The position numbers are program-made. 64,000 bases of DNA from Escherichia coli (lineage in GTDB: Bacteria > Pseudomonadota > Gammaproteobacteria > Enterobacterales > Enterobacteriaceae), in NCBI RefSeq assembly GCF_030384885.1, contig NZ_CP128613.1; one strand, 5' to 3'. Numbering within the stretch: position 1 is the first letter of the stretch; each line of letters opens with the position of its first letter. This document shows positions 15,001 to 18,000 of the stretch, piece after piece.

Positions 15001-18000
15001 GAATTGGCGTTCTTACTACGGCTGAGAAAAAATCACTGCTGAAACCAGAACATCAGGGACTAGCGACGGAAGTGATGTGCCGGATGAACATCGCAGGCGC
15101 GTCCTTTGCCAACATCGAAGGCGTAAAAGCGATGACTGACGTGACTGGTTTTGGTCTGCTGGGGCATTTGAGCGAAATGTGTCAGGGTGCTGGTGTGCAG
15201 GCGCGAGTCGACTATGAAGCGATCCCGAAACTGCCGGGGGTTGAAGAGTACATTAAGTTGGGCGCAGTGCCTGGCGGCACCGAACGTAACTTTGCCAGCT
15301 ATGGGCATCTGATGGGTGAAATGCCGCGTGAAGTGCGCGATCTGCTGTGCGATCCGCAAACTTCTGGCGGTCTGCTGCTGGCGGTCATGCCGGAAGCAGA
15401 AAATGAGGTCAAAGCTACAGCCGCCGAGTTTGGCATTGAACTGACGGCGATTGGCGAACTGGTGCCAGCGCGCGGCGGTCGTGCCATGGTTGAGATCCGT
15501 TAATTCAATGCGGTTGTTTATTGCCGAAAAACCGAGTCTGGCGCGCGCCATTGCTGATGTCCTGCCCAAACCGCACCGGAAAGGCGATGGCTTTATCGAG
15601 TGCGGTAATGGCCAGGTGGTGACCTGGTGTATCGGTCACCTGCTTGAGCAGGCGCAGCCAGACGCCTACGACAGTCGCTATGCGCGCTGGAACCTGGCCG
15701 ATCTCCCCATTGTCCCGGAAAAGTGGCAATTACAGCCACGACCCTCCGTGACCAAACAACTTAACGTCATCAAACGCTTTCTGCATGAAGCCAGCGAAAT
15801 CGTTCACGCCGGTGACCCGGACCGTGAAGGGCAATTGCTGGTAGATGAAGTGCTGGACTACCTGCAACTGGCACCAGAAAAGCGCCAGCAGGTACAGCGT
15901 TGTTTGATAAACGACCTGAACCCGCAGGCGGTTGAGCGGGCGATCGATCGTCTTCGCTCCAATAGCGAGTTTGTACCACTGTGCGTTTCTGCGCTGGCGC
16001 GAGCACGAGCCGACTGGTTATACGGCATCAATATGACCCGCGCGTACACCATTCTCGGTCGTAATGCGGGTTATCAGGGCGTGCTTTCCGTGGGCCGCGT
16101 GCAGACGCCCGTGCTCGGGCTGGTGGTGCGCCGCGATGAAGAAATTGAAAACTTCGTGGCGAAAGACTTCTTTGAAGTCAAAGCGCATATCGTGACACCT
16201 GCCGATGAGCGGTTTACCGCTATCTGGCAACCGAGCGAAGCGTGTGAACCGTACCAGGATGAAGAAGGGCGCTTGTTACATCGTCCGCTGGCGGAGCATG
16301 TGGTCAACCGCATCAGCGGCCAACCGGCTATTGTCACCAGCTATAACGATAAACGGGAATCAGAATCCGCACCGCTGCCGTTTTCGCTTTCGGCGTTGCA
16401 GATTGAAGCGGCTAAACGCTTTGGTCTGAGTGCGCAGAACGTGCTTGATATCTGCCAGAAGTTGTACGAAACGCACAAGCTAATCACTTATCCGCGTTCC
16501 GATTGTCGCTATCTGCCAGAAGAGCATTTTGCCGGACGCCACGCGGTGATGAATGCTATCGGCGTCCATGCGCCGGATCTGTTGCCGCAACCAGTGGTAG
16601 ATCCAGATATACGCAACCGCTGTTGGGATGACAAAAAGGTCGATGCGCACCACGCCATCATCCCGACCGCGAGGAGTTCTGCCATCAACCTGACGGAAAA
16701 CGAGGCGAAGGTCTATAACCTGATTGCTCGTCAGTATTTGATGCAGTTCTGTCCGGACGCGGTGTTCCGCAAGTGTGTTATCGAACTGGAAATAGCCAAA
16801 GGCAAATTTGTCGCTAAAGCCCGTTTTCTAGCTGAAGCAGGCTGGCGCACGCTGTTAGGCAGCAAAGAGCGCGATGAAGAAAACGACGGCACGCCACTGC
16901 CTGTGGTGGCGAAAGGCGATGAGTTGCTGTGTGAAAAAGGTGAGGTGGTAGAGCGACAAACGCAGCCGCCGCGCCATTTTACCGATGCAACACTGCTTTC
17001 GGCGATGACCGGGATCGCGCGCTTTGTTCAGGATAAAGATCTGAAAAAGATCCTTCGTGCGACCGATGGTCTGGGGACAGAAGCGACTCGCGCCGGGATT
17101 ATTGAACTGTTGTTCAAGCGTGGCTTTCTGACCAAAAAAGGGCGCTATATCCATTCCACCGACGCCGGAAAAGCGTTATTCCATTCGCTGCCAGAAATGG
17201 CTACGCGACCGGACATGACCGCGCACTGGGAATCGGTGCTGACGCAAATCAGCGAAAAGCAGTGCCGCTATCAGGACTTTATGCAACCGTTGGTGGGGAC
17301 GCTGTATCAGTTGATTGATCAGGCCAAACGTACGCCGGTGCGGCAGTTTCGCGGCATAGTGGCTCCAGATGGCGGAGAAGGAAATAAAAAGACTTCATCA
17401 CGTAAGCGAGCAGCGAAAAAAAGCCCGCCAGCAGCAGAGGCGGGCAGTGGAGTGATAATGTAATGCTCTGATGCAGTCAGTTTTCGTAGGCCAGATAAGG
17501 CGTTCACGCCGCATCTGGCATAAACGCCTGAAACGGCGCTAATGACTTAAATCACACCCTGCGCCAGCATCGCATCGGCAACCTTCACAAAACCGGCAAT
17601 GTTCGCGCCCTGCACGTAGTTGGTTTGCTCACCTTCACCACCATGCTCAACACAGGCATGGTGGATATCCAGCATGATGTGATGCAAACGTGCGTCAACT
17701 TTCTCGGCTTTCCAGCCCAGGCGCGCAGCGTTTTGCGCCATTTCCAGGCCGGATGTAGCTACGCCACCAGCATTAGCCGCTTTACCCGGTGCAAACAGTA
17801 CGCCTGCCTGCTGGAACAGTTCAGTCGCTTCGATGGTGGTCGGCATATTCGCCCCTTCGGCGACGGCTTTAACGCCATTGGCGATAAGCTGATGCGCGGC
17901 GTCTACATCCAGTTCGTTCTGGGTGGCGCAAGGCAGGGCGATATCAACCGGTACAGACCACGGCTGTTGGCCTTCGAGATAGACCAGGCCAAATTCTTTG

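Follow-up and report, generated by a model that had tools for sequence, protein, structure and literature searches.

In the 64-kb stretch of Escherichia coli DNA analysed here (the window), the convergent genes topB and gdhA lie directly next to each other, and we put at roughly 85% the probability that this junction is an empty allele of the ancestral type, with ynjI, which lies between the two genes in K-12, being an accessory gene that was gained at the junction elsewhere and not lost here by local deletion. The reading relies on the intergenic gap, as it is collinear with the gaps of outgroups and carries a REP element in the same position. This means that ynjI is "missing" relative to K-12 only, and since the empty, REP-bearing junction is also found in outgroups, the window junction would not be a deletion scar.

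The gene order in the window is sppA (minus strand), ydjA, selD and topB (plus), gdhA (minus), ynjH (plus), nudG (minus), ynjF (plus) and ynjE (minus). The features of the junction are as follows:

15508-17463, plus strand: topB (DNA topoisomerase III), 651 aa; NCBIfam TIGR01056, 1019.9 bits; the same CDS is annotated by RefSeq in E. coli 2013C-4282
17344-17463, plus strand: allele-specific 3' end of topB, coding for a Lys/Arg-rich C-terminal tail; left edge of the variable segment by 30-nt sliding identity, which drops here from about 95–100% to 50–87% against the other junction alleles
17416-17445, minus strand: terminator-like hairpin for the gdhA strand, inside topB codons; GCCCGCC/GGCGGGC stem, 9-nt loop, then U7 (scan match)
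17461-17463, plus strand: topB stop codon, TAA
17464-17485, no strand: spacer of 22 nt from the topB stop to the REP, kept in 'E. coli' SCPM-O-B-8794 and E. albertii (alignment)
17486-17519, minus strand: REP1, GCCAGATGCGGCGTGAACGCCTTATCTGGCCTAC as read on the minus strand (consensus match, hairpin, match to the naRNA4/REP model)
17520-17539, plus strand: linker and the decayed left arm of another REP in inverted orientation (GCCTGAAACGGCGC); the beginning of REP2, which is complete in E. albertii and Citrobacter, aligns here
17547-17549, minus strand: gdhA stop codon
17547-18890, minus strand: gdhA (NADP-specific glutamate dehydrogenase), 447 aa; NF006929, 777.8 bits

The gap between the two CDSs (17464-17546) measures exactly 83 bp, and recomputing the coordinates gave the same spacing of the stops as the sequence-only reading of this DNA. 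That reading had put a membrane-protein gene of about 1 kb, ynjI, at this place in K-12, and this proved correct for K-12 strain C600, where ynjI (1,041 bp, 346 aa, DUF1266, NF008480) lies between topB and gdhA. Two outcomes had been named as speaking against the absence of ynjI, namely the same 83-bp spacing in K-12 and a simple relocation of the gene; the stop-to-stop distance in C600 is 1,284 bp, and no relocated ynjI was present in the 64-kb window or in the chromosome of 2013C-4282. The GC content of ynjI is 41%, compared with 53–55% in the flanking genes. Its product is an inner-membrane protein, and the gene is activated by BglJ-RcsB and regulated to some extent by H-NS/StpA (PMC3950696). 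The literature found on ynjI was limited to the BglJ-RcsB regulation and to gene lists, while no paper treating topB, gdhA and a hotspot together was found in the literature searched.

Searches of the 64-kb window with K-12 ynjI by tblastn and blastn returned neither the gene nor a remnant of it (the best tblastn match of YnjI had E = 0.79), and no DUF1266 ORF is present between topB and gdhA. Over the parts of the window used for comparison, some 9 kb around the junction, identity to E. coli 2013C-4282 (NZ_CP027579.1) is 99.9–100%. For the chromosome of this strain a chimeric query was used, which joined the reverse-complemented K-12 ynjI to window positions 17547-20450 (gdhA to ynjF), with a ynjI match expected to show up as a separate place. 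The query ranked 2013C-4282 first and gave a single place, on the gdhA side, so that no ynjI was detectable there by blastn, and close relatives of 2013C-4282 gave the same outcome. The core genes flanking the junction (window 13774-21842) have about 95–97% identity both to K-12 and to a strain with another junction type, of 76 bp, and the window flanks were matched at 99% identity or more by only a handful of 5,426 complete genomes. Judged from such sequence comparisons, the window is from an uncommon, rather divergent E. coli lineage.

The polarity of the junction was considered in a scan of 80 Enterobacterales loci with a TopB relative, with one genome per species and E. fergusonii left out. 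Among these loci, topB and gdhA are directly adjacent in most Enterobacteriaceae; the species with adjacent convergent genes, 11–260 bp apart, include E. albertii, Escherichia sp. E1V33, 'E. coli' SCPM-O-B-8794, many Citrobacter, Salmonella diarizonae, Enterobacter, Kosakonia and others. Only one of the 80 loci has ynjI, that of Escherichia sp. MOD1-EC7003 (91% amino acid identity). The gap of the window is collinear with those of SCPM-O-B-8794, E1V33, E. albertii, Citrobacter and the E. coli allele of 76 bp.

Two further observations were made in the same loci. The junction of a Pseudocitrobacter sp. MAG (locus L019:8840-9098) is empty, its TopB tail ends in KKSPPADEVGSGAIA exactly as in K-12, and the REP pair downstream hardly differs from that of the K-12 ynjI–gdhA spacer; flanks of the K-12 type can thus be found outside Escherichia with no ynjI between them. 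In further Enterobacteriaceae the topB–gdhA junction contains unrelated inserts of 1–5.7 kb, one of them with 38% GC:

L046:8929-12971, L056:5762-11428, L058:8947-12536, L070:8908-12767 and L033:8263-9248: junction inserts of other Enterobacteriaceae

As such unrelated inserts are present in several genera, the slot is a recurrent insertion point across Enterobacteriaceae.

In the population sample of 5,426 complete E. coli genomes, ynjI is present in 3,506, nearly always as one chromosomal copy (a single plasmid match was found in the whole collection), whereas 1,515 have a direct topB–gdhA junction of any type. The exact 83-bp type accounts for 17 complete genomes, of which 15 match the 136-nt query at 100% identity; the 76-bp type, whose REP is another copy of the one seen here (e.g., PEC1013), accounts for about 1,500. 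Some 360 genomes (369 matches) have a cassette with Hsp70 and J-domain/Sel1 genes in the slot, and its content is unaccounted for in about 40. The junction is clearly strain-variable, as had been proposed from the sequence, with at least four alleles.

These counts also bear on the possibility that the short gap is an assembly artefact, in which a repeat-induced collapse at REPs would have removed about 1.2 kb. REPs are repeated, and assemblies from short reads may be broken at such repeats; however, the 83-bp gap is identical in independent complete genomes, the related direct junction recurs in the roughly 1,500 further genomes, and the matching 2013C-4282 chromosome is without ynjI, which makes an artefact extremely improbable.

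The cassette that replaces ynjI in CFT073, 042, ATCC 25922 and 536 is about 4.7 kb long and codes for an Hsp70-family protein of 566 aa, a J-domain and Sel1-repeat protein of 647 aa and sometimes a family-less protein of 266 aa. An example is the following:

E. coli SSGNw1 locus, 323-5006: Hsp70 cassette in the same slot as window 17464-17546

A 77%-identical Hsp70 and a J protein are also present downstream of topB in Klebsiella spallanzanii, and the 266-aa protein has a distant relative (27%) in the insert of Superficieibacter. PADLOC defence models gave only marginal matches for the Hsp70 and Sel1 proteins, and none for YnjI and the 266-aa protein. Homology between YnjI and the 266-aa protein was not accepted, as the match covered 49 residues at 33% identity with E = 5e-4 for a single comparison.

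Apart from the K-12 form, a divergent ynjI allele (P0005; e.g., locus L090:4001-5032, and also L091-L093) occupies the same slot, with 68% amino acid and 71% nucleotide identity to K-12, although its upstream promoter spacer, TopB tail type and downstream REP pair are nearly identical to those of K-12. Further ynjI clusters were found at 80, 60 and 58% amino acid identity. The confinement of the divergence to the CDS suggests diversifying selection or repeated replacement of the CDS. Since ynjI is present in MOD1-EC7003 and has deeply divergent alleles, it is old in Escherichia.

It could be hypothesized that the slot is a multi-allelic cassette locus kept polymorphic by selection, where the window would represent the null allele and the cargo might be related to envelope stress or phages. 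The alleles would then be ynjI forms at 99, 91, 80, 68, 60 and 58% amino acid identity, the Hsp70 and J-domain/Sel1 pair, and nothing. The argument for it is that deeply divergent ynjI alleles have near-identical flanks, a situation shown for the 68% form only, and we regard this hypothesis as improbable.

Regarding the edges of the variable segment, the window is about 93–100% identical to the other alleles through most of topB, while identity falls to 50–87% over the last 100–150 nt or so; in the sliding-identity comparison, homology among all alleles resumes at the gdhA stop, at 100%. Sequence divergence is therefore confined to the topB tail and the gap, and each junction allele has its own TopB C-terminal tail peptide. 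In none of the alleles does the annotation around the junction include an integrase or a tRNA, no direct repeats or mobile-element signatures were found flanking ynjI, and the locus does not have the features of a classical island. Homologous recombination fits this pattern best: the alleles (ynjI, the Hsp70/J cassette, nothing) were probably exchanged through arms formed by the 3' part of topB and by gdhA, which would also explain the allele-specific TopB tails. By the same route, the lineage of the window may once have carried ynjI and acquired the empty allele later by recombination.

The gap itself had been described from the sequence as essentially one REP element at 17486..17522, and this holds, with the coordinates right within 3 nt and with a half-REP remnant besides. 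As a REP we considered an imperfect palindrome of about 35 nt of the form GCC(G/T)GATGCG(G/A)CG...CG(C/T)CTTATC(C/A)GGCCTAC, and REP1 has the consensus palindrome, a stable stem-loop, dispersed copies and an extragenic position (in a 3' region for which transcription is predicted). The degenerate REP tail CGYCTTATCNGGCCTAC is matched on the minus strand at 17486-17502 with 0 mismatches, and the search for this tail with up to 2 mismatches gave 3 matches in the 64-kb window, where chance alone would give 0.03; two more degenerate REP copies thus lie elsewhere in the window. The centroid structure has a 7+4 bp hairpin across 17490-17519, and the folding energy of the gap equals -28.7 kcal/mol on the plus and -31.9 kcal/mol on the minus strand (z-scores -2.3 and -3.3, respectively). 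The REP lies 22 nt past the topB stop and 27 nt past the gdhA stop. Of REP2, only the first 14 nt are left (17526-17539), while E. albertii and Citrobacter have it in full, so the gap does not contain a complete BIME, i.e., two full inverted REPs with a short linker. No Rho-independent terminator was found in the gap by the terminator-like scan, the REP being without a T-run on either strand.

Orthologous REPs occupy the same position in SCPM-O-B-8794, Escherichia sp. E1V33, E. albertii, the 76-bp E. coli allele and Citrobacter. At stem positions 17493/17516, REP1 has A...T, while orthologous REPs of three other Escherichia lineages have G...C, which is a compensatory double change. The junction query matched a median of 2 places per genome. 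A REP copy identical to REP1, followed by a similar linker, was found 3' of yhgF in CFT073, and the sharing of the stem variant and of the linker is consistent with gene conversion between REP copies.

An argument for a secondary loss, i.e., that ynjI was once present and was removed by a local deletion (for example, between REP-like sequences) that left the REP and a 15-mer as a scar, comes from this part of the gap. The 15-mer CATAAACGCCTGAAA at window 17519-17533 is shared with K-12, where its copy spans the ynjI stop codon; the shuffle maximum was 12 and none of the 300 shuffles reached 15. The age of ynjI in Escherichia (MOD1-EC7003, divergent alleles) also agrees with a loss. However, the window copy of the 15-mer is, by position, the linker between REP1 and REP2, and since a REP with a similar linker exists 3' of yhgF in CFT073, a REP-to-REP conversion patch is plausible and can cover part of the motif. 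On the other hand, the divergent ynjI allele has the K-12 flanks, yet lacks the 15-mer. Further against a loss, the entire gap is collinear with the empty junctions of the outgroups named above, the TopB tail of the window is of the empty-allele type and not of the K-12 type, K-12 lacks a REP on the upstream side of ynjI from which REP1 could have remained, and the searches described above found no trace of the gene in the window. We therefore consider a local deletion improbable and prefer the reading of an ancestral-type empty allele, where part of the 15-mer could plausibly be explained by conversion.

Under the ancestral-type reading, the gap would be a 3' untranslated spacer that the two convergent core genes have in common. 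The site at 17416-17445 (minus strand) is the only terminator-like site found, with a fold of -16.5 kcal/mol over a 61-nt stretch, and it lies within the variable TopB tail (KKSPP...EAG). Both empty E. coli alleles and several Citrobacter and Kosakonia loci have the hairpin intact; the K-12 ynjI allele has a degenerate version. It seems that gdhA transcription probably ends at this hairpin and its U7, in the last topB codons. The REP is palindromic, so a hairpin would form in both convergent transcripts, and most likely it protects their 3' ends from exonucleases and stabilises the mRNA. In K-12, deletion of a REP downstream of gdhA destabilises gdhA mRNA (Merino et al. 1987, Gene 58:305, cited in PMC12306157). 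From this analysis, stabilisation of mRNA at the 3' end is the most likely role of the window REP. REPs downstream of gdhA in E. coli K-12 were reportedly described by Becerril and colleagues in 1985, and a REP lying no more than about 15 nt from a stop codon can, as Liang, Rudd and Deutscher are said to have found in 2015, stall ribosomes. With distances of 22 and 27 nt from the two stops, ribosome stalling is not expected here.

It seems very unlikely that the gap codes for a separate product (a small protein or a dedicated sRNA, for example) instead of being a passive REP-bearing 3' UTR. A 23-codon ORF with an ATG start is present at 17471-17542, but it crosses the REP palindrome, would give an Arg-rich peptide and is broken by indels in the orthologous gaps. 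The gap also has a sub-threshold match to naRNA4, a REP-derived nucleoid-associated RNA; the score of 36 bits is well under the gathering threshold of 59.5 and the model hits REPs generically. Promoter-like sites were not found in 17300-17700. For the same reasons of score and generic matching, the gap was rejected as a member of naRNA4. Small ORFs that cross the gap were regarded as spurious.

A REP between convergent genes and the presence or absence of an accessory gene are ordinary, already known biology; E. coli genomes normally have REPs as well as accessory genes that come and go between conserved core genes, and the significance of the finding is small. It does indicate that ynjI is not a core gene and that the K-12 arrangement of this junction is the derived one, a point of use in transferring annotations and interpreting pan-genomes, and that the 3' ends of the convergent topB and gdhA genes would overlap functionally, by the predicted gdhA-strand terminator in topB codons.

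Compared with known systems, the junction differs from the ynjI locus (b1762; DUF1266 inner-membrane protein; NF008480), which occupies the same slot in K-12 and in about 65% of E. coli, in that no homologue was found in the window or in the 2013C-4282 chromosome. The likeness to naRNA4/REP325 (Rfam RF02564), the sole Rfam match in the region, is that of a REP-derived hairpin, although the match has 36.2 bits against the gathering 59.5, with about 46 nt aligned over model positions 1-77 of 77. With the REP/BIME elements of E. coli, the gap shares the imperfect palindrome of about 34 nt, whose GCCTAC/GTAG end matches the consensus exactly, and the extragenic position between convergent genes with a stable hairpin on both strands; it differs from a BIME pair by having one REP and a truncated second. 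The REPs downstream of gdhA in K-12 resemble the window REP as hairpins directly 3' of the gdhA stop, and their mRNA-stabilising role was shown experimentally in K-12. There, however, they form an inverted pair of other REP copies, followed by ynjI. The counterpart of the window REP in E. albertii and Citrobacter is the topB-proximal REP1, and this REP1 is absent from the K-12 allele.
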